Assembly: GCA_964366085.1 (NCBI GenBank)
Contig: CAYISM010000001.1
Span: 17,211-81,210, forward strand
Source: an uncultured Gammaproteobacteria bacterium
GTDB lineage: Bacteria; Patescibacteriota; Microgenomatia; UBA8517
Direction: 5' to 3'
DNA length: 64,000 bases
Part shown: piece after piece, positions 12,581 to 58,477 of the stretch
Layout: every line of letters begins with the position of its first letter
Numbering within the stretch: position 1 is the first letter of the stretch
The notes under the pieces: model-generated
Databases searched by the model: none
What the model was told of the DNA's origin: nothing
Seen by the model: only the letters and a program-made list of their open reading frames with translations
Position numbers and translations under genes: made by a program

Positions 12581-13338
12581 GAATTCCGATTTTTCAATTG
12601 CATTTCCCAAAGTTTTGCGTAAGTCACCATTCTACTAAATATTTGGTAAATTATTTCTATAACTCCTACTGTTCCATCTCTAAATCCCATCTCTAATATG
12701 CCCCTCTTCCAAAATTCTCTCATCGCAACACTAAAAAAACGCCACCATGTCATTTGTGGGTGTCCGGCCTGTAATAACAACTTCGCTTCAATTTCTGACC
12801 ACTCATTAGTTTTGTCTACCATTTCTGTCAACGACCTGTGAGTTATATGAACAAAAGGCTCTTTAAGCTTTCCTATTTCACCCTTAATTTCTGGCTGTTC
12901 GTGCAAATCACCGTGCCATTTTGCCAGCGCCTCTTTTTTAATTAGTCTTAAGACATAATCCGGCCACCAGTCACCATATTTCATCTCATGTCCTAAAAGT
13001 ATATTTCTGCGGGGAATCGCATAAGCAGAGTATTTTTCCTCTTTTCCTATCTTTGAAAGAATTTCTTTTCTTAGAAGAGGAGTGACTCTTTCATCAACGT
13101 CTATATATAAAACCCAAGGACAGTTTGCTTTTTTTGCACCAAAGTTTCTCCAATCGGAAAAAGTTCCCCCTTGGGGGTATTTATATACTTTTGCATCTTT
13201 CTCTTTTGCTATTTTTACAGTGTTGTCGTCTGTCGCGTGATCTACTACAACTATCTCATCTACCCAAGAAACAGAATCAATACATTCTCCAATTAATTCC
13301 TCAGAGTTGATTGCGATAATAATTGCGCTAATTTTCAT
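12577..13338 (-). CDS. GT2 family glycosyltransferase
   Basis: ISAIIIAINSEELI...IVVVDHATDDNT, GT-A fold; paralog of 14256-15179. Confidence 0.8.
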   Translation of the reverse strand: MKISAIIIAINSEELIGECIDSVSWVDEIVVVDHATDDNTVKIAKEKDAKVYKYPQGGTFSDWRNFGAKKANCPWVLYIDVDERVTPLLRKEILSKIGKEEKYSAYAIPRRNILLGHEMKYGDWWPDYVLRLIKKEALAKWHGDLHEQPEIKGEIGKLKEPFVHITHRSLTEMVDKTNEWSEIEAKLLLQAGHPQMTWWRFFSVAMREFWKRGILEMGFRDGTVGVIEIIYQIFSRMVTYAKLWEMQLKNRNS

Positions 13339-13341
13339 TGT

Positions 13342-14259
13342 TTACCCACCTCTGGTGGGCCAGCTTCCTTTTCCAAAGTTACACAAATAAAAATCTATAA
13401 CTCCAATTTTCTGCCATTTTCTCCCATTGAGTAATAATTTTACACTTTCTTTAATTAGAGCAAATTTTGTATGCATTGGTGCGTATTTAATACCAAAAAG
13501 CAAGCGGTTCCTAGTTGTGTAGTAATCGTTTAATTCGCTTCCAATCGCTGAACTTTGGCTTACCTTATGCCAAAGAGTTGCTTTTGGAACAAACCATACT
13601 TTGTAACCGGTTTTTTTGGCCCTCAAAGATAAATCAACGTCTTCAAGATATAAATAATACCTTTCATCAAAAAATTCTACCTTCTTAAACATTTCGCTTC
13701 TTATAAACATGCAAGCTCCTGTGGCAAAATCGATCTCCTTAACTTTGTTAAATTGTCCACGATCAATTTCATCGACGCCATGATTTGATCCATATACATT
13801 TTTCCAGTCCATATCTCCTCCTGCATACCAAATAACTTTTCCTATTTCACTTTTTTTATATCTGTTTTTATGGAACTCAAACCCACGCGCAAAATACATC
13901 TTTGGAGAAAAAATCCCTCCATCAAGATCCTTCTCTGCCGCCTCAACTAATCGAACAACTAAGTTTTCGTGAGCTATTGTGTCGTTGTTTATAATCAAAA
14001 CGTAATCAGCGCCTTTGTCTAAAGCGTATCTTATCCCAATATTATTTCCTCCGGCATAACCTAAATTCCTTTTATTTTCGATTAGAGTAACACCCGATAA
14101 TCTTTCAAGTTTCTCAATCTCGTCGGGCTTCGAGCCGTTATCCACAATAACTATGTTTAGTTGAGAATCTTCAAGCCTCATCTTTTTAAGGAATTTCACA
14201 CAGCCTATGGTGTCATCCGCTCCATTCCAATTAAGAACCACAGCGAAGATTTTAATCAT
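13342..14259 (-). CDS. GT2 family glycosyltransferase (rhamnosyltransferase-like)
   Basis: FAVVLNWNGADDTIGC...IVIVDNGS, GT-A fold. Confidence 0.8.
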   Translation of the reverse strand: MIKIFAVVLNWNGADDTIGCVKFLKKMRLEDSQLNIVIVDNGSKPDEIEKLERLSGVTLIENKRNLGYAGGNNIGIRYALDKGADYVLIINNDTIAHENLVVRLVEAAEKDLDGGIFSPKMYFARGFEFHKNRYKKSEIGKVIWYAGGDMDWKNVYGSNHGVDEIDRGQFNKVKEIDFATGACMFIRSEMFKKVEFFDERYYLYLEDVDLSLRAKKTGYKVWFVPKATLWHKVSQSSAIGSELNDYYTTRNRLLFGIKYAPMHTKFALIKESVKLLLNGRKWQKIGVIDFYLCNFGKGSWPTRGG

Positions 14260-15179
14260 GGAAGTTTAAATTTCCTCTTAATTCTTGCCTTAATACCACC
14301 GCCATTTTTGAGCTCGGTGTCTGCTTCCCAATAATGAAAGTCCGATTCTGATTTTTTCAATCTATCTATAATTTCCAATACATTCAAATCTTCTTCCTCA
14401 AAATCGGCTAATTGCCAAATCTTAAGATACAAAACCAATTCAGAAAACGCCTGGAGTAAGGACAATGCTAAACCATGTAATCCGTCTTTGTATCCTTCAC
14501 CAAAAAAGTATCTACTCAAGAATTCGTCTGTCGGTTTTTTAATCAAATCAACCCAAGAAAACTTATATCCTTTCTCTATAATTATTTTGGCGTGCTCTGA
14601 GGTATATCTATTAAGACGGTCTATATATTGTTCCAAAGAATCGTAATGAAAATGAACTATCGACAACTCTTCTTCGGAGGGCAAATCTTTGCCCTTTCCC
14701 TGTGTCATTGGAACAGAGTGTATAACTTCATTCCAAATAACAAATCCTTTTTGGAAAAAACGAATATTGTAATCAGGCCACCAGCGAGAGTGTTTCATCC
14801 ACTTTTTGAAAATAATGTTTTTCCTAGGAATTCGATAATAGTCGGCATCACTCTTCTTTACCAGTTCTTTTATTTTTTTTGCAAGAGTCATCGGAACTTC
14901 CTCATCAGCATCAAGAATGAAAATCCATTCTCCTGTCGCCTTAGAAATGGCAAAATTCCGAGCTGGTTCAACATATCCAACTCTTTTGTATTCATAAACT
15001 TTGGCTCCAAACTTTTTAGCAATATCTCTCGTTTTATCACTTGACATCATATCAACCACAACAATTTCATCTGAAAAATCCCTGACAGAAACGATAGCCC
15101 TTTGAAGATTTTTTTCTTCGTTTAAAGTATTTATTACGGTTGAAATCTTACTCACAATCTTAATTTTACCACCTACCAA
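14256..15179 (-). CDS. GT2 family glycosyltransferase
   Basis: ISTVINTLNEEKNL...IVVVDMMSSDKT; similar to 12577-13338. Confidence 0.8.
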   Translation of the reverse strand: MVGGKIKIVSKISTVINTLNEEKNLQRAIVSVRDFSDEIVVVDMMSSDKTRDIAKKFGAKVYEYKRVGYVEPARNFAISKATGEWIFILDADEEVPMTLAKKIKELVKKSDADYYRIPRKNIIFKKWMKHSRWWPDYNIRFFQKGFVIWNEVIHSVPMTQGKGKDLPSEEELSIVHFHYDSLEQYIDRLNRYTSEHAKIIIEKGYKFSWVDLIKKPTDEFLSRYFFGEGYKDGLHGLALSLLQAFSELVLYLKIWQLADFEEEDLNVLEIIDRLKKSESDFHYWEADTELKNGGGIKARIKRKFKLP

Positions 15180-28942: not shown

Positions 28943-30100
28943 ATGAAAAGAATTCTTAAAAACCTTATTTTTATTTCTCTCCTCTCCCTCATCCCAACGG
29001 TAATTATATGGATACCGTTTTTTCTGAAGTTAAAAAGTATTTGGGGAATTCCGCTTCCGAATGGCGGAATGGCAACCATAGTTTCAAATTATGACGGACC
29101 ACTTTTTATTGTGATCGCAAAAACTTTCTATAACATAGCGCAAATTAAAGCGAATTATTCATTTCCTCTCCCTACTGAATATTATGCAGCTCATTTTCCT
29201 TTGTTTCCTGTCATTATCAAAATTTTTGCCTTTATTTTTGGTTTCCCGTATGGAATGTTGGTTGCAACTTTAATATCCTCAATTCTTGCAATTTATTTTT
29301 TTAACAAATTAATAAGAAGATATGTCGAAGAAAAGGAGGCTCTTTGGATAACTTTTGTCTTTTGCCTGTTTCCTGCGAGATGGCTTGTCGTTCGTTCAGT
29401 AGGAAGCGCTGAACCGTTATTCCTGGCTGCAATAATTGCTTCGGTTTATTATTTTCAATCAAAGAAATATTGGCAGGCGGGAGTTTGGGGGGCTATAGCA
29501 CAACTTACAAAATCCCCGGGAATTCTTCTTTTTATTGCATACCTTGGAGTAATAATGCTTCCACAATTTAAACGTCTTGCAACAGAAAAATTCCAGATTT
29601 GGGCAAGAGAGTTAAATTGGAAAGCTTATCCAATACTATTTATTCCAATTTCACTTCTGGGAATTTTTGTTTTATATAAGTTCACCTTTAACGATTTTTT
29701 TGCCTATTTCCATTCGGGCGACAATGTACATTTAATGTTTCCGCCATTTTCAATATTTAACTCCAGCCAATCTTGGGTGGGCACGTTTTGGCTTGAAGAA
29801 GTAATTTTTGTTTATCTTTTTGGAATTTTGGGGCTACTTCAATTGATCAAACAACGGGAAAATATACTCGCCGCTGTTGTTGGAGTATTTTTTACTTCCT
29901 TACTTTTCGTCGCACACAGAGATTTGATCAGATATTCGCTCCCGATCGTTCCATTTTTATTTGTCGCATTTGCAAATGTTATTATCAAAAAGGAATTTAA
30001 AATTGTTATGGCAATACTGGCGCTTCCGATCTTTCTTTTCTCTATCTCCTACATCTCCCAAAATGTAATGCCCATCGGGAACTGGTCCCCATTCCTCTAA
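28943..30100 (+). CDS. Polytopic membrane protein (possible GT-C-like glycosyltransferase)
   Basis: 385 aa, about 10 TMs, plus strand. A TGCTAATAT extended -10-like element lies 8 nt upstream of the ATG. Confidence 0.4.
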   Translation: MKRILKNLIFISLLSLIPTVIIWIPFFLKLKSIWGIPLPNGGMATIVSNYDGPLFIVIAKTFYNIAQIKANYSFPLPTEYYAAHFPLFPVIIKIFAFIFGFPYGMLVATLISSILAIYFFNKLIRRYVEEKEALWITFVFCLFPARWLVVRSVGSAEPLFLAAIIASVYYFQSKKYWQAGVWGAIAQLTKSPGILLFIAYLGVIMLPQFKRLATEKFQIWARELNWKAYPILFIPISLLGIFVLYKFTFNDFFAYFHSGDNVHLMFPPFSIFNSSQSWVGTFWLEEVIFVYLFGILGLLQLIKQRENILAAVVGVFFTSLLFVAHRDLIRYSLPIVPFLFVAFANVIIKKEFKIVMAILALPIFLFSISYISQNVMPIGNWSPFL

Positions 30101-47174: not shown

Positions 47175-47251
47175 TTATCATTTTAGCCACGCTTTCTTTA
47201 GTTGAACTAAATCGTCATTTAAGATTAACTCTCTAATTCGTTTCATTAAAT

Positions 47252-47283
47252 TTCTTCTGAAGTTAGAAGAAGTCACTTTTTTT
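47252..47283. terminator. Weak hairpin (TTCTTCT-gaagtt-AGAAGAA) followed after 5 nt by a T7 run; possible terminator downstream of the FKBP and LytR_C genes
   Basis: 7-bp stem read from the sequence. The T-run is offset and the strand is ambiguous. Confidence 0.2.
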
Positions 47284-47289
47284 AAATTA

Positions 47290-47778: not shown

Positions 47779-47800
47779 GCTGAAATATTTTAGCACTCTT

Positions 47801-47995
47801 TCAATTTGTAAAAAGATGGTAAAACTTATCATTTTCATCGTGTCCGGTTCTTGAAAGAAGGGTTGCGTTATATCCGAAGGCTGCTTCGTCAACGGTCAAG
47901 CCGGGAGGAGTATTAAGAATTCTATAAGAAAAAAATAAGGCCAGGGCGATTAAAACGATGCCCGCCAGAAAAATTTTCTTTAAAGTTTTATTCAT
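47801..47995 (-). pseudogene. Truncated N-terminal fragment (64 aa) of an ArnT/PMT_2-like GT-C glycosyltransferase
   Basis: TM helix then LTVDEAAFGYNATLLSRTGHDENDKFYHLF, which closely parallels the first-loop DE motifs of the genes at 655-2358 and 2374-3942. It stops after 64 codons and sits 10 nt from the left direct repeat. Confidence 0.4.
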
Positions 47996-48005
47996 TTCTT
48001 ACTCT

Positions 48006-48026
48006 TCCGCCTCTGCTGGAAAATGC
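48006..48026. repeat. Left copy of a 21-bp perfect direct repeat TCCGCCTCTGCTGGAAAATGC; a degenerate match continues about 25 nt further
   Basis: Exact match to 54503-54523. The flanks AATGGGGTACTGCACAG and AATAGGGAACCACACAG are also similar. Confidence 0.8.
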
Positions 48027-48071
48027 CAGTTAAATGGGGTACTGCACAGCATGGATCTAAATTATCCAATC

Positions 48072-51000
48072 TCATCCTGTTTGATCAATTATGTCAAAAA
48101 TCCGTTGTCGCTCCTTGATATCCTCAATTTTTGGACCAATTACTTCTTTAATTGCTGCTTTGGGATCAACTGTATGATTCATAATTGCAGCTACCCTTGT
48201 CGTTGCCCTAAGAGAGAACGGAAAATCAACCTGCTCTAAGCTTCTGCCACTTTGATAAGCATCGAAGGCTTCTCTGATTTTGTTGGCAACTTTTACGACA
48301 ATAAGTAGACGCTTTACCGCATCCTCTCGCTCCGCAGTTTTGAACTGTTCTCCCCCTTTACCTTGCTCTTTATTTACTACCAAATTCCAGAGCGAAACAA
48401 ATTCCGTTTGATTAAGCGCTTTAAGTGGTTCCATCATCTTGGCTGCCATTTCTGCCTCGTCCGAGCGATACCTCACTTGATTCTGGCTACCCGTTTCCTG
48501 CAAAGGTGGATAGCCATACAGTAAAATATCAGCTCTGTCTTTGACCTCTGGTGATAACTTTTTGGTTCCAATATAACGAGTAGGATTCATGTCTCCAACA
48601 AACAAAACGCTTGGATGGGCACGAATTTGTTGTTTTCGATTGCCCTCTGTAACGAAAACCGAACGACGATAATCAAAAAGGGAGTTGAGCAATTTGAGGA
48701 CTTCCGGTGGTAATGTATTAATTTCAGTGAAGTCAATCATTGTCCCTGGCCTTTGTATACCATTAATGAGTTGAGAGGGAATCTTTACAGTTCCTGTCTT
48801 GGGGTCAAACCAATATTCATAGATCAAATCCTGCCTTTCCATGGAAAAGTTACATGGAATCGTAACAATTTCCTCGTTAGTAAAATGGCCGAACATGTCC
48901 CAAAGAACATTTTTGCCTGCGCCAGCTTCACTCTCAACGACCAAAATCCCATCCTGCATCTCTAATTGTAATTTGGCTCTCTTGGCAATCCTGCCATGCA
49001 TTTCTCGCATGTATTGAGTGTAAACCCATTTTTCATTCCAAGTCGGGACTGTCCTTTCTTGGGCCGCAAAAAACGCTCGAGCTTCAGGAGTAGTCAAAGA
49101 AATTACTTGCTCAGTAGTAGGATCAGTTAAGGATAGGGGAATGGACCCTAATCTATCAGGAACAAATTCTCGGCCGCTAGTGTCCGCATAGACTAAATGA
49201 CCAAATTGACTGCCTGGAGACAAGGGGACAATTTTTGGTGCCCAAGCAGCTTTAGACTGGGCAAAAACAGGAAATTTTTCCCCTGCAAAATCAACCTCGC
49301 CTGCTTTTTGTAATACTCCTGCACTTTTAGCAATACGAAGATTCGTGGTTGCCTTAGCTAATAATGCCTCTAGTTTAGTCTCCTCTTCTTGCCTCAATTC
49401 TGACGGGAGTGAGAGAATTTTTGCTCGCAGTTGAATAAGTTGGGGACTTCTTCTCAGCCTTTCCAAATCCGCATTTGATGCTACCGTTTCTATAATTCTT
49501 GTTTCAAATTCACTGACGCCCTGACGGATAATGTCAACTTCGCCGACCAATTTCGTCCTTTTCGCTTCTTCTGCTAGTACCGCAGACTGCCTGATTTGTT
49601 CTCGTTTAGAGTTTATTACTCCTGATAATTTTTGCTGCCACTCAGCTGCTGCCTTAGGATCTTTAATGAAAAAGGTAAGTTGATCAAACTTGAGAATTGC
49701 TTCGTGGCCTGAGAGGTCAGAAAGCTCATCGAGAGAGCCCGCCCTGTCAATTAACGCTTGTACGCGGGTTAACTCTCCAGGAAGAATTGAGGTGATTTGT
49801 GCTTGATAATGCTCAACTACCGTATCTCTTTTCTGTTTTAATGCTTGGATTCTTTCATCTATTTCCCTTCTCTTCTCCGGATCAATAATATTGGCCTTCC
49901 CTCTTTCTAACTCCAATTCTGTTACTTTAGCATCCAAATTGGCCGCTTGGTCGACAGTTTTTATATCTTTCCCCAAAGTTTCGACCCGACTAATTGCCTG
50001 GGCAAGTCCCTCGACTTGAATGGCAGAAATTCTGCCACCGATATCAGCCTCCATTTTATTAAAGCTCTGGGGGTAGTCTATAAATCGTGAATCCTGTTTG
50101 AGTCTTTCTATATCTGAGGAGACCAGAGCCAATTCATTAGGAGTTTTAGCCTTATTAATTCTCTCACCAAATAGCTTCTGTAACTGGGCTTCAAGTGCTT
50201 TATTCACGTCTATTTCAGTAAATTTACGCGGGGTTCTGGCTTGCGCGGTGTCTACAGTCAAGTTCCCGGCTGCTTCTATCAGTTGACGTAATCTTTCCTC
50301 ATGCTGTCTTTTAACTGCTTCAACACCCCCAGGTGGAATACCTGCAAAGTTGGTCTGAACCAGGCGGACTCGATTTTGATCGTCTGAAAAATAGATCTGT
50401 CCATCAGGCGCTACCGTCATATCTCCACCGACTCCATCGATTTCCTTTACTTTTTTACCCGAAGCTTTGTCAACGATTACCAATTTGCCTGAGGTTTCAC
50501 TTGGGTCTTTTTTAACTGTCAGAACAAAAAAATTGCCATTTGGTTCTAATGCAAAGTCTGTCGGTCTACCTCCTAAATCTTCCATGGGGACTGGCCGAAC
50601 GTCTGGATTTCGGCTTTTGACAGAAGAAATGTTTATCGTTTGAACTTTCCCGGTGGCTTGATCCAAAACATAGATCAGTTCAGGATCGTTGGGGTTATAA
50701 GAAGCCTCTTGAGTCAATTGTCTATAAAGAACTTCCTTAGTTTTCGGATCGGTAATTGTTAATAAGCCCTGATAATCCCGTTTCATTTCGACATCGTATT
50801 TTGTAATACTTATTGTTTGTTCTCGTGGTGTTGCTAGTTGTGGGGGAATGTCGCTAATAGATAATATGCCATCCCCTCCCATTATCTTTGAATCGATTAG
50901 TGAACGATATCTCCACTTACCCGGTGAAACAATCTGACCTTTGTTGGCAACTTCAGCAATAATTGGTTTTCCAGCAACCACTATTCTGATGAAATTCCCA

Positions 51001-51581
51001 TCAGGAGAGATCTCAAGATGAGGGTCTACGGTTAAGAGAGGAGTTGTTCCAAAAACAGTTTTGGGCGATTGAGCCAATCCACTTCTTAGCTTACTCATTT
51101 CTATATACAGTTTTTCATCACTTTTTTCTACTATGTTGTGAGTGATTTGCTTGGCAAGTTCAAATACTTTACTAGCCAACTCTAACCCTATCGGTTCAGA
51201 TAGATCTTGACAGTACTTCTTTGGAAATTCATCAAAACGTACCCAATTGCCGCCTTTTTTTGTGGATAATTCAGCAATATCCTCCAGTGTTAGTGCTCGA
51301 TAAAAAGGTAGAATAACTTTGTCTCCTTGATTGTCATAAATGTCAATAACGTAGCCGTTAGGTTCGCCCCGAACAACAAATGTATAACCCCGCGCGGCTG
51401 TAATACTTTCAATTCTAGTTGTGGAATTGTCTTTAAGTATTTCTGGTGGTTGGAGTTCGGCTTGAACGAACGATCCCAAACCACTTTCGGCAGGTACGGG
51501 CCTGAGAGCGTCCCCCATTTGTCCAGTAATTCGTTCTGATGCAAGTGGTTCTGTCATTTTATCCGATAATAAAAGCTTCAA
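48072..51581 (-). CDS. Giant multidomain protein: N-terminal NHL/beta-propeller-like repeats, long coiled coil, C-terminal MoxR/AAA_5-like ATPase module with non-canonical Walker motifs
   Basis: 1169 aa. The repeats include VAPDGQIYFSDDQNRV and EPNGNFFVLTV. About 400 aa are heptad-rich. The C-terminal module reads ESEAGAGKN (Walker A-like), MIDFTEINTLPPEVLKLLNSLFDYRR (Walker B region, D to T) and VLFVGDMNP...LSPEVKDRADILL (sensor/Arg region), which parallels MoxR. Confidence 0.65.
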   Translation of the reverse strand: MKLLLSDKMTEPLASERITGQMGDALRPVPAESGLGSFVQAELQPPEILKDNSTTRIESITAARGYTFVVRGEPNGYVIDIYDNQGDKVILPFYRALTLEDIAELSTKKGGNWVRFDEFPKKYCQDLSEPIGLELASKVFELAKQITHNIVEKSDEKLYIEMSKLRSGLAQSPKTVFGTTPLLTVDPHLEISPDGNFIRIVVAGKPIIAEVANKGQIVSPGKWRYRSLIDSKIMGGDGILSISDIPPQLATPREQTISITKYDVEMKRDYQGLLTITDPKTKEVLYRQLTQEASYNPNDPELIYVLDQATGKVQTINISSVKSRNPDVRPVPMEDLGGRPTDFALEPNGNFFVLTVKKDPSETSGKLVIVDKASGKKVKEIDGVGGDMTVAPDGQIYFSDDQNRVRLVQTNFAGIPPGGVEAVKRQHEERLRQLIEAAGNLTVDTAQARTPRKFTEIDVNKALEAQLQKLFGERINKAKTPNELALVSSDIERLKQDSRFIDYPQSFNKMEADIGGRISAIQVEGLAQAISRVETLGKDIKTVDQAANLDAKVTELELERGKANIIDPEKRREIDERIQALKQKRDTVVEHYQAQITSILPGELTRVQALIDRAGSLDELSDLSGHEAILKFDQLTFFIKDPKAAAEWQQKLSGVINSKREQIRQSAVLAEEAKRTKLVGEVDIIRQGVSEFETRIIETVASNADLERLRRSPQLIQLRAKILSLPSELRQEEETKLEALLAKATTNLRIAKSAGVLQKAGEVDFAGEKFPVFAQSKAAWAPKIVPLSPGSQFGHLVYADTSGREFVPDRLGSIPLSLTDPTTEQVISLTTPEARAFFAAQERTVPTWNEKWVYTQYMREMHGRIAKRAKLQLEMQDGILVVESEAGAGKNVLWDMFGHFTNEEIVTIPCNFSMERQDLIYEYWFDPKTGTVKIPSQLINGIQRPGTMIDFTEINTLPPEVLKLLNSLFDYRRSVFVTEGNRKQQIRAHPSVLFVGDMNPTRYIGTKKLSPEVKDRADILLYGYPPLQETGSQNQVRYRSDEAEMAAKMMEPLKALNQTEFVSLWNLVVNKEQGKGGEQFKTAEREDAVKRLLIVVKVANKIREAFDAYQSGRSLEQVDFPFSLRATTRVAAIMNHTVDPKAAIKEVIGPKIEDIKERQRIFDIIDQTG

Positions 51582-53809
51582 ATCTGTCTCATTCTTGAGA
51601 CATATAAAAGTGTGTTTCGCAAAACCTGGAATGCTGATTCTGGTAATTGACCGAATGTCTCCGGCACAGCAACATTTTCTTCACCAAAATAGAAAGCCAG
51701 ATCTCTTTTCAACTGCTCTCTTTGGACAGGATCCTGAGCTAGTGCAAAGGCTTTAAGAATGGTACTTGATTTTCTCGTACCGATGTAATCTTTGAGTTCT
51801 TGACCTGTCCTTCCCGCATTAGCTCTACCATCAGAAATGGTGAAAATGGCGCCAAAACTTTCCGGAAAAATCCTCTGCGCTTCACTTGTTTCCTCTAAAG
51901 CTTTTGTTATACCGCTATCTAGATCAGTCGATTCACCACTGGCATTAGTCATAGTTACCAGTTTTTTCTTAATCGCATATCTTGGCTCATCGAAAGGTTG
52001 TGTAAAGTCCATAATTTGTTCCGTTTGACTGCCAAATAATTTGATAGCGAAAGGCATTTCGTAATGCTTAAAAACTTGGGCAAAGAAAATAGCGGTTTTG
52101 ATAGCTACCTCCATTTTTTCGCCCGACATACTACTACTGTTATCGATAAGTAGGGTTGCGTAGAGTAAGGCCTCGGGCAAATCTACGACTTCTTTTCTTT
52201 TAAGGATTCTATAATCTCCTACCGGTATTCTTTGAGCCGCCGTTCGACTATCCGGTCTACTTCCGGTTATAAAGCGTCCTGTTCTTACTACGCGATACTT
52301 TTTGGGAACATACGGGTCGATCATGTCGATGAATCGTCGGGTGTAAGGAAGTATTTCTGCTTCAAGTTGTTGATAACGGCGGTAGTGTTCTAAATCCTGC
52401 TCGTCAAATCCTGCTCGTAACATTTCTGTCTTTTCCTGCATCTTCCCCTCTTTACTTCGTCGTTCCGAGTCCCTTGTCTGTTGAGCCTGTGACTCTTTAC
52501 TAAGACGTTCCATTTCTCCAGTTTCCATTTCTGATAACATTTTTTCGAGCTCAGCCGCTGTTTTTTGACCATTCTTTGGATCTTCCCCCTTAAGATGAGC
52601 CTTGTATTCTCCTGTTTTTTGGTCTTTTTCCATCCGAAGAAGTTTTGGGAGCTCTTTATTTAGTGTTTCTGATTGTTTACGGTCAAGTTCCTCCCGAGCT
52701 TTGGCCATTAATCTCTGTTTTAAATCTTCTGGTAGTTGTTCGATGGCCTTCTCAAGAGCTGCTTCCTGCTCTGGTGATAGTTCGCCTGGTTGTTGATCCT
52801 CTGATCCGCCTTGTTGGCCACCCCTAAGCGATTTTTCAAGTTCTCGCTTCAAGTCTTGAGGCAATTTCTGGGTGGCTTCTCGCCCCGGATTGTTACCGAT
52901 CTCTTCTCCTGATTGCTGGCCCTTACCTTGACCACGTCTCTCTTGTCCCTGTCCTTGTTGACCTTGGCCTTGGCCTTTCTGCTCCTGCTGGAGGTTTTGC
53001 TTTATCTGGTCTTTAGCTTCGTCTTTCTGAGCTTGCGCTTCCAAAACTTTAAAAGTTGGCCAGATTTTTTCTCTGAAGAGTTTGTGATTATCTGCCGGGG
53101 TTGCCCCGTAAAAATATTCTTCTAGTGCTGGTTTTATTTGTTCAAAGGCGCTTCTAACTCTTTCATCTTTAAGAGTGGGTAAATTCTCTCCAGTAAGCCA
53201 GTAGTAAATGACATTTAATCCTAGTTGGTGGGTAATTGGCTGAGTAGATACATGGGGAATAATTTCTGCCGTGCTGGCTGCGTATCTTGTTTTCATCTGC
53301 TGCTCTACTACCGTGGAGTCTTCAATTTCTCGAATATTTACCCAAACATCCTCGGGATAGTTAATTGCCATGGCATAGGTACTAGGCAAAACGCCTTGCT
53401 CTTGTGCCCACCTTTGCCCTTCAAGGAATAATCTATAATCTGTATTATTGACATGTCCCACTTCGTGACGAAGTACACCCAGAACTTCATCCTCTGGCTT
53501 GGTGGCTACTTCTTTCTCATCATAGTGAATTTGGGTTGGGTGAAATGTTGAGTTTGGTAAGCCGTCCAAGGTGGGTCTTTGACCCATGACATATTTCTCT
53601 ACTTCCTCTAAATGTTCGTTGTCTAAACCCGCAGACCAACCCCCGTGTTCTGAAGGAACAACGGTGAGACTATAAGTTCTAGAAAATACCCGTGCTATCC
53701 AAGCCATTTTCTGCTTCCGCTCGGCAACCATTTCCGAAGTCAAAGCCTCCTCTGATCTACTAAGGGCTGATCCAGTCACTTGCACGTTTTTATCTATTAA
53801 CTCGGTCAT
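51578..53809 (-). CDS. HExxH metallopeptidase-like N-terminal domain plus Q/G/E-rich low-complexity linker plus C-terminal VWA (MIDAS) domain protein (DUF2201-like architecture)
   Basis: 743 aa. VLGVLRHEVGHVNNTDY HExxH motif, QQEQKGQGQGQQGQGQERRGQGKGQQ linker, and C-terminal LLIDNSSSMSGEKM...TNASGESTDLDSG VWA/MIDAS. It overlaps the downstream giant gene by 4 bp. Confidence 0.65.
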   Translation of the reverse strand: MTELIDKNVQVTGSALSRSEEALTSEMVAERKQKMAWIARVFSRTYSLTVVPSEHGGWSAGLDNEHLEEVEKYVMGQRPTLDGLPNSTFHPTQIHYDEKEVATKPEDEVLGVLRHEVGHVNNTDYRLFLEGQRWAQEQGVLPSTYAMAINYPEDVWVNIREIEDSTVVEQQMKTRYAASTAEIIPHVSTQPITHQLGLNVIYYWLTGENLPTLKDERVRSAFEQIKPALEEYFYGATPADNHKLFREKIWPTFKVLEAQAQKDEAKDQIKQNLQQEQKGQGQGQQGQGQERRGQGKGQQSGEEIGNNPGREATQKLPQDLKRELEKSLRGGQQGGSEDQQPGELSPEQEAALEKAIEQLPEDLKQRLMAKAREELDRKQSETLNKELPKLLRMEKDQKTGEYKAHLKGEDPKNGQKTAAELEKMLSEMETGEMERLSKESQAQQTRDSERRSKEGKMQEKTEMLRAGFDEQDLEHYRRYQQLEAEILPYTRRFIDMIDPYVPKKYRVVRTGRFITGSRPDSRTAAQRIPVGDYRILKRKEVVDLPEALLYATLLIDNSSSMSGEKMEVAIKTAIFFAQVFKHYEMPFAIKLFGSQTEQIMDFTQPFDEPRYAIKKKLVTMTNASGESTDLDSGITKALEETSEAQRIFPESFGAIFTISDGRANAGRTGQELKDYIGTRKSSTILKAFALAQDPVQREQLKRDLAFYFGEENVAVPETFGQLPESAFQVLRNTLLYVSRMRQI

Positions 53810-53836
53810 CAGTTCAGATACTCCTTACATAGATTC

Positions 53837-53845
53837 ATATTACCA
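53837..53845 (-). promoter_or_regulatory. Extended -10-like element TGGTAATAT upstream of the VWA-protein gene; an AAGGAG SD lies at 53821-53826
   Basis: Minus-strand reading gives TGGTAATATGAATCTATGTAAGGAGTATCTGAACTGATG. Confidence 0.35.
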
Positions 53846-53931
53846 ATTAGCCAGTCCGTAAACAACGAATGATTTTCTGTTACCAAACAAAACTGAAACC
53901 TTTGTAATTGAGGTTACTGACATTTCTTGAA

Positions 53932-54183
53932 CTATTTGTAAATTTCTCTTCTGTGACCAACTCGGAGAATAATGATATTTTTACCACCAATGTCGAAAAT
54001 TACTCTGTAATTTCCAGCTCGAAAGCGATATGTTCCTAATCGAGGATCTGTCAGCTTTTTGGAATACTTGAAAGGGCTCAGAGAAAGAAATTCTAACCTC
54101 TTTTTTATTTTCTTTCTGGCAACTCTGTCCAGTTTCTTAATATCCCTTACCGCAGATTTTGTATAAAGAAGATTGTAAACCAT
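53932..54183 (-). CDS. RelE/ParE-superfamily toxin (YoeB/Txe-like)
   Basis: 83 aa; ...YRFRAGNYRVIFDIGGKNIIILRVGHRREIY; start overlaps the antitoxin stop. Confidence 0.75.
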   Translation of the reverse strand: MVYNLLYTKSAVRDIKKLDRVARKKIKKRLEFLSLSPFKYSKKLTDPRLGTYRFRAGNYRVIFDIGGKNIIILRVGHRREIYK

Positions 54184-54431
54184 TAGATCTCACCAAAAAC
54201 TTGGGAGTGCGAAAGAATATCGCCTTTTTTATATTCCTCCCTGGCTTTTTTAATGCTTGCAATATATTTTTTATTGGAGAAAGCCAAAAGATCTTCGAAA
54301 AAATCTATATTAACCAAGGCAGAAGTTATCCTTCCTTTGCGAGACACGAGAAGAAAATCTTTCTTGGATGAAACTTCCTTGATCGCATCCGCTAAATTAT
54401 TCCTAAGCGTCGCAGAACTTACAACATTCAT
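54183..54431 (-). CDS. Phd/YefM-family antitoxin
   Basis: MNVVSSATLRNNLADAIKEVSSKKDFLLVSRKGRITSALVNIDFFEDL is the YefM pattern. A TGTACAATA -10-like element lies 12 nt upstream. The longer ORF extending to 54542 is unlikely to be the real start. Confidence 0.7.
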   Translation of the reverse strand: MNVVSSATLRNNLADAIKEVSSKKDFLLVSRKGRITSALVNIDFFEDLLAFSNKKYIASIKKAREEYKKGDILSHSQVFGEI

Positions 54432-54502
54432 GTCAGTTTCTATTGTACATCTAAAGTGTACGATATCAAGACAACAGTTCCGGTAACGACATTTTTTGCT
54501 TA

Positions 54503-54523
54503 TCCGCCTCTGCTGGAAAATGC
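54503..54523. repeat. Right copy of the 21-bp direct repeat TCCGCCTCTGCTGGAAAATGC
   Basis: Exact match to 48006-48026. Confidence 0.8.
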
Positions 54524-54577
54524 TATACGAATAGGGAACCACACAGTTAGCTCGCTTACTGCTTGCCCCTTCTAAAC

Positions 54578-55630
54578 TTATTGTTGAAAATAATTATTAA
54601 TTGCGAATTGAAGCTGTCCCATATAAAGACGCTTAAAGTTATATAAATTGTTGGTTTCATAGAAAACAACCATAGCACTTCGATATTCGTTAACATCAAT
54701 ATTTCGATAAGATAATGGAAAATAATCGTAAGCCATTAAAACTGCATTTGAAAGCATGCGTGAAGTCCTTTTATTTCCATCAGCAAATGGCTGGATATAT
54801 GCGATCATTATCGCCAATATCAATGCCTTTTCAGGTGAATATTCAGTTTTATTTACACGTTCAATTAATTGCCTTAGTACGTTTTCGATCTGATGTTTAT
54901 CAGATAATGGCTCATACTGCGTCCCGGAAATCTTCACCTTTTGCGATCTAACTCCAGAAGTTATTAGACCTTTCGTTAACACTTGGTGTAACTGAATAAT
55001 ATCGGCAAAATCTAATTTTTTAAATGAATCCTTTTTATCTAAGATCACTTCAAATGCTTTTTTGTGGTTTAAAATCATCACAGCCTCTTCATCTGAATGT
55101 CCATGGGCCTTGATATTCTGTTTAATCAAGGTTTCCGTTTCGATTAAAGTATATGTGTTTCCTTCAATTTGTGATGATTTCCATGAGAGTTCAATGATAA
55201 ATCTCTCAAGTTCTCTTTTATAAATTGATGGATCTAATTTGTTCCCCGCCTCTTTAAAGATTTTTTTGCTTCTTTCCCATAGGTTAATCTCATCCGGTGA
55301 ATATAAATTATTTAGACGAGAAAACACATTATTGTTAAATTTTTTGCTAATAATCCTAGCTTCAATTTCCGTTTTAAAATAATCATCTAGGTCAAGATAT
55401 GTAAGCAGGGAGTTTGTTTCAACCAACCCGTAAATAGTATTTTTCCCCTTCCCCGACATTTCAACAAGATTTAAATCAATAAGGCGATTAAGGTCCCGAA
55501 TAAAAGTGATCCTCGAAATACTTTCGTCAGGTGAAATTTGGCTGGCCAAAACAAGACGGGATATGCTACCCGCCTCTTTTAAGATCTTGAGAATTTTCTT
55601 CTGGCGATCGTTAAGATTCGTATCATTCAT
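54578..55630 (-). CDS. Fic/Doc-family protein with N-terminal winged HTH; core motif QPFADGNKRTSR (catalytic His replaced by Gln)
   Basis: IAYIQPFADGNKRTSRMLSNAVLMAYDYFPL aligns with the canonical Fic HPFxDGNGRTSRLL. Codons were checked directly: CAG at 54791-54793. Start taken at MNDTNL; the ORF track extends to a GTG at 55705. Confidence 0.7.
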   Translation of the reverse strand: MNDTNLNDRQKKILKILKEAGSISRLVLASQISPDESISRITFIRDLNRLIDLNLVEMSGKGKNTIYGLVETNSLLTYLDLDDYFKTEIEARIISKKFNNNVFSRLNNLYSPDEINLWERSKKIFKEAGNKLDPSIYKRELERFIIELSWKSSQIEGNTYTLIETETLIKQNIKAHGHSDEEAVMILNHKKAFEVILDKKDSFKKLDFADIIQLHQVLTKGLITSGVRSQKVKISGTQYEPLSDKHQIENVLRQLIERVNKTEYSPEKALILAIMIAYIQPFADGNKRTSRMLSNAVLMAYDYFPLSYRNIDVNEYRSAMVVFYETNNLYNFKRLYMGQLQFAINNYFQQ

Positions 55631-55639
55631 ACTCTTTAA

Positions 55640-55659
55640 TCGTATCATAAATGATACGA
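55640..55659. promoter_or_regulatory. Perfect 9-bp inverted repeat TCGTATCAT-aa-ATGATACGA upstream of the fic-like gene
   Basis: Read directly from the sequence. It lies between the secA stop and the probable fic start, so it is a candidate operator. Confidence 0.35.
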
Positions 55660-55699
55660 ATAGTGAACACTCCGAAGAGCTCGGCGAATGGAACTCAAT

Positions 55700-55718
55700 G
55701 TACACCTCGGAGGTGTAC
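55700..55718. promoter_or_regulatory. 8-bp stem, 3-nt loop hairpin GTACACCT-cgg-AGGTGTAC just downstream of the secA stop; candidate terminator or operator
   Basis: Read directly from the sequence; no clear U-tract follows on the minus-sense strand. Confidence 0.3.
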
Positions 55719-55729
55719 TAGCTTGGCAC

Positions 55730-58477
55730 CTAAGGAATTACCGGATAGTGACAACGTTTCCACTTCTTCCCGGACCCACAGGGACAGGGGTCGTTGCGAC
55801 CCAACTTTTTTTTATTTGATGTTGATTGTTGGTTGTTGGTTGTTGGTTGTTTGAAGGCGGGCTCGCCAGTTACTAAAGCTTCTTCAGCCCCACCAGCAAG
55901 GCCAGTCATGTCGGTTGTATCAATATTTTCTCGGACTTTCTCAAGCGGGATTTCTGGTGCCGGAGCAACTCCGATTCTAAAGAGTCTTTGACAAAGCTCC
56001 TCATCAATTCGACCGAACAAATTTTCAAAAAGGGCATATGCCTCGTTTTTAAATTCAACTAACGGATTCCGCTGGCCAACACGTCTTAATTCAACCGCTT
56101 CTCTCAAGTCATCAATGTGGTCAATATGATCAATCCAAAGGTGGTCAATTGACCCAAGATATGCGTATTTTTCAACCTGTCTCATCGCACCCTCACCAAC
56201 TTGCTTTTCTCTTGACGCATAAACATCTGCCAGGACTTTATTCAAAAATTCTTTGATCTCATCTTTGCTTTTGAGATTTGCCTGCCCGACGGCAAGGCGG
56301 GAGATTTGAGATTTGAGATTTTTTATCGATTCATCATCAAAAGGAACAACCTCCAAAAATCCTGCGAGAACTCGTTCATAATCAATAGTTTTATCTTCCT
56401 GTAAAGATGCGCTCAAAGTTTTTTCTATCTGACTTAACAGTTTTCCATTTACTTCCTCTTTAATGTTCGAAGACTCAAGTATCCTTTTCCTTAATCCGTA
56501 AATAATTTCTCTGTGTTGATTTGTTACGTCGTCAAATTCAACCAGTCTTTTCCTCATATCAAAATTAAATCCTTCAACTTTAACCTGCGCCTGCTCGATT
56601 GCCCGCGAAACTAATTTATTTTCAATGGGTTGATCTTCCGGAATTTTAAGAGCTCCCATCAAAGATGCTATTTGTTCTCCTCCAAAAATCCGCATTAGAT
56701 CATCCTCAAGTGAGAGATAGAATCGGGAAGAACCCGGATCTCCCTGACGGCCTGATCTGCCTCTTAATTGGTTATCAATTCGTCTTGATTCATGCCTTTC
56801 GGTTCCAATTACATGGAGGCCTCCCGCTTTAATAACTGCGTCGTGGACCACCTGCCATTTTTTATAAGCAGGGGTTTTTTCATAGACTTCTCTATCCATT
56901 CCGGGAGTCATGTCTGAGGGACTCCCTCCGAGAATAATGTCAACTCCACGGCCTGCCATATTTGTTGCAACAGTTACGGCCCCCGGCCTGCCTGCATCAG
57001 CAATAATCGTCGCTTCTTTTTCATGGTTTTTAGCATTAAGTACGTTGTGAGGAATTTTTCTTCTTTTTAGATATTCTGAAACGATCTCATTTTTTTCAAT
57101 CGAGACAGTTCCAACCAAAACCGGCTGGCCCTTTTTGTGTTTCTCCTCGATTTCGTCAATTATTGCAGTGTATTTCCCTCTTAAAGTTTTATAGATTGAA
57201 TCGGAATTATCGATCCTTATCATTTGTCTGTGCGTTGGAACAACTACAACGTCTAATTTATAAATTTTCCTGAATTCTTCGGCCTCTGTTGCTGCCGTTC
57301 CCGTCATTCCTGATAAAGTTTCGTAGAGCCTAAAGTAATTCTGAAAAGAAATCGTTGCGAGTGTTTTTGATTCTTGTTGGATAGGGATTTCTTCTTTTGC
57401 CTCAACCGCTTGGTGAAGTCCATCGCTCCAGCGCCTGCCGATCATAAGTCGTCCCGTAAATTCGTCGACTATCATTACCTGATTATCTTTGACAACATAA
57501 TCACGATCTTTCAAAAAAAGCGTCCTTGCGCGAAGGGCATTTTCAATATGGTGGATTGATTCAAAATCTTTCTCATACAGATTGGTAACTCCCAGAATTT
57601 TTTCGACTTTGGAGATTCCGTGTTCGGTTAAAGAAGCGCTTTTTACTTTTTCGTCGACTTTATAATCGGTATCCGGATTGAGTTTTTCAACAATTTTTGC
57701 GAACTTGTAATATTTCTCCGTCGGCTCTGTATCCGGCATTGAAATGATAAGCGGCGTTCTTGCTTCGTCAATCAATACAGAGTCAACTTCGTCAACAATG
57801 GCAAAATAGTGGCCCCTTTGACTCATTTCGGGTATGGAACTAACCATGTTGTCACGCAGATAATCAAAACCAAACTCATTGTTTGTCCCGTAAGTAACAT
57901 CGGCCTCATAAGCTAATTTTCTTTCAACTGGTTTTAGATGTGAAAGTCTCTCGTCTCCATGGCTGGTATCAACATATTCGGGATCATAAACAAACGATTT
58001 TCCTTCCTGGACAATCGAACCTGTCGAGAGACCTAAAAGGTGAAAAATTGGTGCGTTCCAACCGGCATCACGGCGGGCTAGATAATCATTAACCGTAACC
58101 AAATGAACTCCACGACCTGAAAGCGCCCTAAGATAAAGCGCGGGAACTGCTGAAAGAGTTTTTCCTTCTCCGGTTTTCTGTTCGGCAATTTTCCCTTCAA
58201 ACAGAGAAACCCCCGCCATAAGTTGGACGTCATAATGTCTAAGTCCAATCGCGCGATATGAAGCCTCCCGGACCAAAGCATAAGCCTCCGGTAAAATGTC
58301 TTCTAAACTTTTACCCTTAGTCAGTTCTTCCTTGAAGAATTCTGTTTTTTTTGCAAAATCTTTGTCTTTTAACTTTTTAATTTTGGGTTCAAACTCGTTT
58401 ATTTGATCAACGATTTTTCTTAATCGATCGACTTCTCTTTGGTTAATGTCAAGGAGTTTGGAAAAAATATTAAACAT
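55730..58477 (-). CDS. secA: Preprotein translocase ATPase SecA
   Basis: 915 aa, DEAD-like motor motifs (GEGKT, MTGTA, VDEVDSVLIDEARTPLIIS), C-terminal zinc-binding CPCGSGKKWKRCH. Confidence 0.95.
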   Translation of the reverse strand: MFNIFSKLLDINQREVDRLRKIVDQINEFEPKIKKLKDKDFAKKTEFFKEELTKGKSLEDILPEAYALVREASYRAIGLRHYDVQLMAGVSLFEGKIAEQKTGEGKTLSAVPALYLRALSGRGVHLVTVNDYLARRDAGWNAPIFHLLGLSTGSIVQEGKSFVYDPEYVDTSHGDERLSHLKPVERKLAYEADVTYGTNNEFGFDYLRDNMVSSIPEMSQRGHYFAIVDEVDSVLIDEARTPLIISMPDTEPTEKYYKFAKIVEKLNPDTDYKVDEKVKSASLTEHGISKVEKILGVTNLYEKDFESIHHIENALRARTLFLKDRDYVVKDNQVMIVDEFTGRLMIGRRWSDGLHQAVEAKEEIPIQQESKTLATISFQNYFRLYETLSGMTGTAATEAEEFRKIYKLDVVVVPTHRQMIRIDNSDSIYKTLRGKYTAIIDEIEEKHKKGQPVLVGTVSIEKNEIVSEYLKRRKIPHNVLNAKNHEKEATIIADAGRPGAVTVATNMAGRGVDIILGGSPSDMTPGMDREVYEKTPAYKKWQVVHDAVIKAGGLHVIGTERHESRRIDNQLRGRSGRQGDPGSSRFYLSLEDDLMRIFGGEQIASLMGALKIPEDQPIENKLVSRAIEQAQVKVEGFNFDMRKRLVEFDDVTNQHREIIYGLRKRILESSNIKEEVNGKLLSQIEKTLSASLQEDKTIDYERVLAGFLEVVPFDDESIKNLKSQISRLAVGQANLKSKDEIKEFLNKVLADVYASREKQVGEGAMRQVEKYAYLGSIDHLWIDHIDHIDDLREAVELRRVGQRNPLVEFKNEAYALFENLFGRIDEELCQRLFRIGVAPAPEIPLEKVRENIDTTDMTGLAGGAEEALVTGEPAFKQPTTNNQQSTSNKKKLGRNDPCPCGSGKKWKRCHYPVIP

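Follow-up and report, generated by a model that had tools for sequence, protein, structure and literature searches.

Bacteria of the Candidate Phyla Radiation (CPR; Patescibacteria) have tiny genomes, and how they gain genes is little understood. Here we describe a segment of ∼6.5 kb, bounded by direct repeats, in a stretch of 64,000 nucleotides (nt) of contig CAYISM010000001.1 (positions 17,211 to 81,210; hereafter the window), from a Microgenomates/Woesebacteria-like CPR bacterium. Pfam comparison gives the segment the four minus-strand genes that an initial annotation had listed, namely, a YefM-type antitoxin, a RelE-type toxin, a protein with an HExxH motif and a VWA domain, and a giant propeller/AAA_5 protein, and our best reading, held with moderate confidence, is that the segment is the att-like insertion scar of a cassette without a recombinase. 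Genomic islands are frequent in groundwater Patescibacteria (PMC12455944). For the cargo, the closest described systems are MoxR AAA+ proteins with a VWA partner, such as NorQ/NorD, CbbQ/CbbO, and RavA/ViaA (PMC9976466, PMC13036017), MoxR-vWA-peptidase operons, for which a model has been proposed (Zhang and Aravind 2012, PMC3495828), and vWA-MoxR ternary conflict systems, in which the third component is VMAP, an inactive STAND, FtsH, or a propeller/TPR protein (Kaur et al. 2020, PMC7159879).

The segment shares several properties with tRNA-associated integrative islands: direct repeats that are identical in their core flank a foreign cargo of atypical composition, relatives lack the insertion at the same position, a toxin-antitoxin (TA) module could stabilize it, and a sister case, in a Ca. 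Shapirobacteria genome (contig L090), adjoins a tRNA gene at its 3′ end. Unlike such islands, neither case contains an integrase, both are only 6 to 6.5 kb long, the window copy lies at what appears to be a decayed GT-C glycosyltransferase leader rather than at a tRNA, and the tRNA overlap in the sister case is only 4 nt.

The direct repeat and its setting downstream of secA

The 21-mer TCCGCCTCTGCTGGAAAATGC has two exact plus-strand copies in the window (Table 1), as the initial annotation had reported; no third match is found when up to three mismatches are allowed, and 0 of 100 shuffled sequences gave a match. Only ∼0.0015 same-strand exact 21-mer pairs are expected from the base composition of the window, and a chance origin of the identity is effectively refuted, again in agreement with the initial annotation. 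The further similarity that it placed on one side only runs on both sides of the core, however, and the unit is a 57-nt direct repeat with 44 of 57 positions identical (77%). The arms outside the core agree at 23 of 36 positions (64%; P = 2.7e-6 against a background match rate of 0.26), and with 13 mismatches among 57 positions, an uninterrupted match of at least 21 nt would arise with P = 0.013, so that conservation is higher in the core than in the arms. When the 800 nt upstream of each VWA/AAA+ pair considered here were aligned to the 800 nt downstream, the window scored 49 against a null of 22.6 ± 2.2. Seen on the minus strand, both copies begin 23 to 32 nt past the stop codon of an upstream gene (the giant gene and fic, respectively) and end in an ATG, which opens a 64-amino-acid (aa) open reading frame (ORF) at the left copy and an ORF of eight codons only at the right copy. 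Both copies are reproduced at 100% identity in independent contigs from Hainich groundwater (L082 and L083, identical to window positions 47933 to 50558 and 51797 to 56061), and in one of them the right copy is flanked by 2.7 kb on one side and 2.0 kb on the other. Besides a single NCBI contig of 84 kb, these two short contigs are all that publicly represents the source genome.

The initial annotation had named a dispersed motif, such as a repetitive extragenic palindromic (REP)-like element, as the finding that would speak against an island. No copy of the 21-mer with up to four mismatches is present in 1.6 Mb of related loci, nor any further copy in the window; among 241 million metagenome records it occurs in the two Hainich contigs of the source organism and in one unrelated high-GC soil contig (L081), where the match falls within a coding sequence and is compatible with chance, and it is missing from the viral contigs searched. 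Over this combined scope, the motif is not a dispersed one.

Other identities for the repeat were considered and rejected. Fold z-scores for both copies and both strands range from −0.75 to +0.2, no better than for shuffled sequence, and no Rfam family matches, so that a structured RNA is not supported; no terminator or promoter consensus was found at the repeat. The 21-mer superficially resembles a tRNA 3′ end, but ARAGORN identifies no tRNA or transfer-messenger RNA in the window, and no T-arm is present upstream, so that a tRNA-derived att site is not supported. An integron cassette is rejected as well, with a GTTAAAT heptamer in the left copy only and no partner core, dyad structure, or integrase, as is a dif site of the kind used by integrative mobile elements exploiting Xer (IMEX), as the GC skew is negative across the whole window without a switch and the repeat has no dif-like arm symmetry. 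A DNA transposon is likewise rejected: inverted repeats at the inner ends score 18, close to the null of 16.6 ± 2.3, no transposase is present, and a repeat of 21 to 57 nt is far longer than a typical target-site duplication. A third, degenerate copy was sought between the TA pair and the VWA gene and at the other junctions, and none was found.

The segment lies in a variable gap of an otherwise shared gene order. Relatives have in common the series RarA, a methyltransferase-like gene, SecA, the variable gap, FKBP/LytR_C, RF2, FtsE, and FtsX; the closest SecA proteins, which come from Microgenomates/Woesebacteria and so place the source organism in the CPR, are 73 to 77% identical to its own, with none closer than 77% in the collections searched and nothing above 54% in a SecA scan of genome contigs. 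The secA-FKBP gap measures 19 nt and is without genes in L086 and L087, holds DUF5666, a sigma70 factor, DUF5667, and AsnB in L084/85, a VTT-domain protein (VTT_dom) in L094/95, and a 160-aa protein together with a Phd/ParE pair in L096/97. Because the gap in relatives holds nothing or unrelated genes, the whole ∼8 kb between FKBP and secA in the window is accessory, including the fic gene and the 64-aa ORF. The gap is thus a variable hotspot filled by more than one event, of which the repeat-bounded 6.5 kb is only a subset, and a single clean island, as in the initial annotation, is not supported. The empty site that it had envisaged is seen only as a gene order, in L086 and L087; no site carrying a single copy of the 21-mer was found among relatives of at most 77% SecA identity.

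The Phd/ParE pair of L096/97 (L096:10164-10418, L097:8956-9463) is not an ortholog of the TA pair in the window, with only 28 to 32% identity, and the two were therefore acquired independently; TA modules seem to be recurrent colonists of the hotspot. We note that this relative (75% SecA identity) contains a second Phd/ParE pair ∼3 kb further on, and that the toxin gene of the first pair is uncalled in L096. In L086, a tRNA-guanine transglycosylase gene (13249-14352) lies between FKBP and LytR_C; it is absent from the window, where 115 nt (47175-47289) occupy the position, and the region downstream of FKBP is therefore variable too. Both Hainich contigs end in abrupt joins, from the middle of the giant gene to tsaD/kae1-like sequence in one (L082:2627-3015, at window position 50558) and from the middle of secA to rplP in the other (L083:4266-4765, at window position 56061); these are either low-coverage chimeric assemblies or real, rearranged population variants.

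The composition of the region is uneven. The VWA/AAA+ pair has a GC content of 42.7% versus 38.1% for the rest of the window, and the 3-kb windows with the most unusual tetranucleotide usage in the 64 kb lie over it, with 0 of 300 random segments as deviant. The fic gene (34% GC) deviates in the opposite direction, which suggests that it was acquired separately.

The VWA/AAA+ pair here and in other genomes

The VWA protein has an N-terminal helical domain, a disordered linker rich in Q, G, and E, long helices, and a C-terminal VWA domain. H115, E116, and H119 of the N-terminal HExxH motif are invariant, as are D556, S560, T628, and D660 of the VWA domain, which are the putative residues of a MIDAS (adhesion site dependent on metal ions). 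The giant protein consists of a WD40-like beta-propeller (residues ∼40 to 410), a helical region (419 to 754), a small beta domain, and a MoxR-type AAA+ module (856 to 1169). The ATPase profile of the family best matches the AAA modules of midasin (E = 2e-30), and the best solved relatives of the module are CbbQ and NorQ. No model in Pfam, NCBIfam, or PADLOC covers either protein whole. In an alignment of 38 sequences, N or D stands after the lysine of Walker A (GxGKN, with GxGKD in a few), never S or T; Walker B reads DEIN in most members and TEIN in the window protein ("DFTEIN"), with the glutamate invariant and the aspartate replaced by N, G, or I in a few other members. The GK[ST] Walker A and hhhhDE Walker B motifs canonical for MoxR-VWA pairs are thus not found in the window protein.

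With a MoxR-clade AAA+ fold and an adjacent partner bearing a C-terminal MIDAS/VWA domain, the pair is a MoxR-vWA system of the CbbQ/NorQ/midasin type, in an architectural variant. The "unfamiliar" two-gene system of the initial annotation is therefore uncharacterized in its architecture but recognizable in kind. As in NorQ/NorD, CbbQ/CbbO, and RavA/ViaA, genes for a MoxR-type AAA+ protein and a partner of ∼740 aa are adjacent, and the partner resembles NorD in its N-terminal domain, disordered linker, and C-terminal MIDAS/VWA domain. The window pair differs from all three in the 850-residue N-terminal extension of the ATPase (propeller plus helical region), in the GKN P-loop, in the HExxH motif of the partner, in the order of the genes, with the VWA gene first, and in that no nitric oxide reductase (NOR) or Rubisco target enzyme is encoded nearby. 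Midasin/Rea1, which acts in eukaryotic ribosome assembly, is similar both in the ATPase profile and in its acidic, low-complexity linker before the MIDAS; it has six AAA+ modules in one polypeptide, in contrast to the single module here, and the window system, which is bacterial and mobile, divides ATPase and MIDAS between two proteins. The vWA-MoxR conflict systems and MoxR-vWA-peptidase operons share with the pair a MoxR and vWA core accompanied by propeller, coiled-coil, and peptidase-type domains, a patchy and mobile operon, and defense-type neighbors (here, Fic and TA genes). However, the window pair has no conserved third component, its propeller is fused to MoxR rather than to vWA, and its HExxH domain is fused to the vWA N terminus rather than encoded as a separate transglutaminase-like protein.

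The pair recurs in other genomes. Seven homologs of the VWA protein (33 to 43% identity) were found, and in all four whose contigs were examined (L088, L089, L090-92, and L093) the next gene codes for an AAA_5 protein of 1,080 to 1,180 aa; the closest homolog of the giant protein (P0130; 33% identity) is likewise preceded by a 757-aa VWA protein (L109-112). The two genes are thus adjacent, at 31 to 38% identity, in five other genomic contexts with unrelated neighbors each time. No TA pair, fic gene, or integrase stands beside the pair in these five, no third component is conserved among the differing neighbors of all six contexts, and the neighborhoods examined have no conserved client gene. 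The cassette, sought on other backbones as the initial annotation had suggested, recurs there as the VWA/AAA+ pair without the TA pair, which is never linked to it. An exhaustive HMMER search for the giant protein family returned 83 cluster representatives at E < 1e-30, ∼40 of them full length; a word-indexed homolog search returned the giant protein itself only, and an exact-sequence look-up of the VWA and Fic proteins of the window returned no record. A phage origin of the pair is rejected, with only generic VWA-domain matches in IMG/VR, only matches to a CobS-like ATPase domain in PHROG, and no full-length relatives of the VWA protein in 2.9 million viral contigs. In L110 and L111 (7485-10157 and 7413-10025, respectively), a gene for a TrwB/TraG-like type IV coupling protein (DUF8128) is found two genes downstream of the pair, which may point to a connection with a conjugative or DNA-transfer region.

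Significant flanking direct repeats are present in two contexts only, the window and L090. In the latter, a 26-nt direct repeat, CCGCAGTTATTTCCCGA(T/C)CATTTTAC, encloses the pair together with its promoter, with 25 of 26 positions matching (copies at 1897-1922 and 7925-7950; alignment score of 47, with a null of 21.5 ± 2.0). A tRNA-Ser(GGA) gene (1818-1900) has its last 4 nt within the left copy, and the enclosed 6 kb contains a TTGACA-17-TACAAT promoter and the two genes only, with no integrase. This is a classical tRNA-associated island geometry, without its integrase, and the strongest independent support for reading the window junctions as scars. We note that a predicted 112-aa ORF, encoded on the opposite strand, reaches into the second copy with its 3′ end, and that the repeat sequences of L090 and the window are unrelated to each other. 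The 17-nt core of this L090 repeat is matched exactly by a single IMG/VR viral contig of 4 kb (L113:468-484), within a coding region; the match stops short of the full 26-mer and is probably due to chance.

The toxin-antitoxin pair, fic, and other features

The TA pair has the gene layout and domains of a type II Phd/YefM-ParE/RelE system as read from its sequence, with the stop codon of the antitoxin gene overlapping the start codon of the toxin gene at 54183. A palindromic promoter adjoins the antitoxin gene upstream, inside the segment and near the right repeat, and is predicted to be an autoregulated promoter/operator of the pair. The VWA/AAA+ genes probably form a transcription unit of their own, judging from the candidate promoter and ribosome-binding site that precede them, and the segment would then comprise two independent units. 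The intergenic gaps (45, 122, and 68 nt) are without pseudogene debris, and at no more than 122 nt they leave no space for a recombinase gene or a remnant of one, which bears out the initial annotation in its statement that no integrase or transposase lies inside.

The Fic protein matches the defense models SoFic (E = 2.7e-20) and several PDC-S04 (PADLOC-DB v2), as well as the phage family phrog_11900 (E = 2.9e-35), and fic looks like a separately acquired defense-type gene; none of the four proteins encoded in the segment matches a PADLOC-DB v2 defense model. The right repeat is adjacent to fic as the initial annotation had it, although the distance from the fic stop codon to the 21-mer is 54 nt rather than 55. 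At the other end, the 64-aa ORF begins 10 nt from the left 21-mer, in the position given for a truncated GT-C fragment. Its GT-C identity is tentative: it has no Pfam match, and tblastn against the N terminus of the PMT_2 protein encoded at 655-2358 gives E = 0.009, a similarity that might reflect a decayed target gene of which a GT-C stub is left.

Table 1. Features of the segment and its surroundings (positions are those of the window)
Feature	Position	Strand	Remarks
Accessory region, whole	47780-55729		Between the conserved FKBP gene and secA
64-aa ORF, probable GT-C (PMT_2-like) N-terminal stub	47801-47995	−	Outside the left repeat; weak match
Left 57-nt repeat copy	47993-48049 (core, 48006-48026)		23 nt past the giant-gene stop codon; ends at the ATG of the 64-aa ORF (CAT on the plus strand); proposed attL-like junction
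Beta-propeller/helical/MoxR-type AAA+ giant protein, 1,169 aa	48072-51581	−	C-terminal AAA_5 domain
Walker motifs of the giant protein	Residues ∼884-891 and 948-955	−	Noncanonical P-loop and Walker B
HExxH-linker-MIDAS/VWA protein, 743 aa	51578-53809	−	HEVGH and VWA domain
Intergenic region upstream of the VWA gene, 122 nt	53810-53931	−	Candidate promoter TTGTTT-17-TAATAT; AAGGAG ribosome-binding site 8 nt before the ATG
ParE/RelE-type toxin, 83 aa	53932-54183	−	PF05016, 53.1 bits (cutoff, 23); RelE-like PHROG
Phd/YefM-type antitoxin, 83 aa	54183-54434	−	PF02604 (PhdYeFM), 24.4 bits, below the gathering cutoff of 29.8
Candidate TA promoter, TTGATA-16-TACAAT	54442-54469	−	Sigma-70-like, 10/12 matches, best in the region; overlaps the palindrome GTACA...TGTAC
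Right 57-nt repeat copy	54490-54546 (core, 54503-54523)		Between the fic stop codon (54578) and the TA promoter; proposed attR-like junction
Fic-domain protein with N-terminal helix-turn-helix-like region	54578-55705	−	Outside the repeats; absent from relatives at this position

Farther away, positions 655 to 28198 are an almost unbroken run of minus-strand ORFs, many of ∼490 to 590 aa, and the one that was tested (655-2358) codes for a PMT_2 GT-C glycosyltransferase. This suggests that the first 28 kb of the window is a large paralogous cluster of envelope glycosyltransferases, to which the 64-aa stub may be related. A 385-aa ORF on the plus strand (28943-30100), opposite to nearly all of its neighbors, has no Pfam match at E ≤ 0.001.

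Origin of the segment and its meaning

From the sequence and by analogy, we infer a recombination mechanism, an order of events, and a biochemistry for the cargo, which would run as follows. The resident site would be the secA-FKBP hotspot, with a GT-C leader and start downstream of a resident fic gene, into which ∼6.5 kb of DNA was inserted by recombination across a short shared sequence. The 21-nt crossover core would have been duplicated perfectly at both junctions, and arms of 64% identity are as expected if attP-like and attB-like sites were alike but not identical. As the insert contains no recombinase, recombination would have been catalyzed in trans, by a recombinase of the host or of a helper element, or would have relied on short homology. 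The interrupted GT-C gene would later have decayed to a stub of 64 codons, and the TA pair would stabilize the insert, whose second unit is the two-gene MoxR-vWA machine. The att-type geometry of insertion with target duplication, as the initial annotation proposed it, thus stands in so far as the repeat is real, its core is conserved, and the segment is accessory, but the setting is a hotspot of several events rather than one clean island.

For the cargo pair, the most likely mode of action is that of NorQD and CbbQO (PMC9976466) or midasin. By this analogy, and by that with the MoxR-vWA-peptidase model (PMC3495828), an AAA+ ring would dock the MIDAS/VWA protein, which would grip an acidic residue of a client; ATP hydrolysis would pull on or remodel the client, the fused, zincin-like HExxH domain would possibly cleave it, and the propeller and coiled coil may act as sensors of targets or partners.

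Several observations weigh against the insertion scar of a recombinase-less cassette or against parts of its mechanism. The fic gene and the GT-C stub are accessory too and yet lie outside the repeats. No contig shows a single-copy empty site or the junction of an excised circle, and the Hainich contigs have the occupied state only. ARAGORN and Rfam find no tRNA or other recognized target gene at the repeat in the window, and no recombinase is present among the four genes of the segment or in 10 further window ORFs that were scanned. Flanking-repeat scores are at the null level in L088, L089, L093, and L109-112. In a k-mer comparison such as the initial annotation had advised, the VWA/AAA+ pair is the strongest outlier of the window, but the TA pair is compositionally indistinguishable from host DNA; as it also never accompanies the VWA/AAA+ pair elsewhere, the cassette is composite. 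For the proposed machine, ATPase activity is not assured given the GKN and TE motifs.

The principal rival, which we consider possible although doubtful, is accretion, with fic, then the TA genes, and then the VWA/AAA+ pair arriving separately and the 57-mer serving as a functional cis-element such as a leader, promoter, operator, or 3′-end signal. The hotspot does gain different genes independently in relatives, including an unrelated Phd/ParE pair, and the TA pair, fic, and the VWA/AAA+ pair each have a composition of their own; moreover, both repeat copies are equally placed after an upstream stop codon and end in ATG, and stronger conservation of the core than of the arms would suit a protein-binding site as well. 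Such a cis-element, however, would be present just twice in 64 kb, with no copy in relatives or in other metagenome contigs; it would lack a promoter or terminator consensus, an RNA structure that is stable or shared, and an Rfam family, and the ATG in its right copy would open eight codons only. It also leaves unexplained why the same cargo is repeat bounded at a tRNA in L090, and this, together with the missing promoter, terminator, and RNA features, weakens it.

It is unlikely that the segment is what remains of a larger integrative element, whether a prophage, an integrative and conjugative element, or an integrative mobilizable element, from which the integrase and other genes were deleted so that attL and attR surround the surviving cargo. 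Direct repeats of the att type do flank the segment, the adjacent GT-C stub shows that deletions have occurred here, and the closest homolog of the giant protein is encoded two genes from a TraG/TrwB-like coupling protein (L110/L111). Against this, the segment is very compact, with its short gaps free of debris, full-length relatives of the VWA protein are absent from the viral contigs, and the independent L090 island is equally minimal, with a promoter and two genes; that everything except these genes was cleanly lost twice, and independently, is not likely. A chance repeat or an assembly artifact is highly improbable, for although the soil contig L081 does have the 21-mer by chance and both Hainich contigs have chimeric-looking ends, the expected number of pairs is far below one, the arms are significantly similar, and both copies recur unchanged in the Hainich contigs.

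More speculatively, and at a likelihood that we take to be low, CPR bacteria may host a class of minimal, recombinase-less cassettes of ∼6 kb that carry a split, midasin-like MoxR-MIDAS machine (propeller/coiled-coil/AAA+ plus zincin/linker/MIDAS) and are moved by a recombinase in trans between sites such as tRNA 3′ flanks and gene leaders, leaving repeats of 20 to 26 nt. The machine would possibly be an as yet unrecognized two-component conflict or defense system, a role that is conceivable because it is found here beside Fic and TA genes.

The locus provides a concrete hotspot downstream of secA with different accessory genes in each relative, and two independent cases in which the same two-gene module is repeat bounded without a recombinase, so that mobilization in trans is testable with existing metagenome reads. 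The cargo is a considerable one, at ∼1,900 codons in a genome of roughly the 1-Mb class, and the solved systems nearest to it are CbbQ, NorQ/NorD, and eukaryotic midasin. Current understanding is not overturned, as islands in Patescibacteria (PMC12455944) and mobile MoxR-vWA operons (PMC3495828, PMC7159879) have already been described; the island is a further case of a known type, and what is new is the architecture of its cargo among MoxR-vWA systems. The pair family could inform how AAA+ and MIDAS modules of the midasin type are coupled, in a simple two-protein form.

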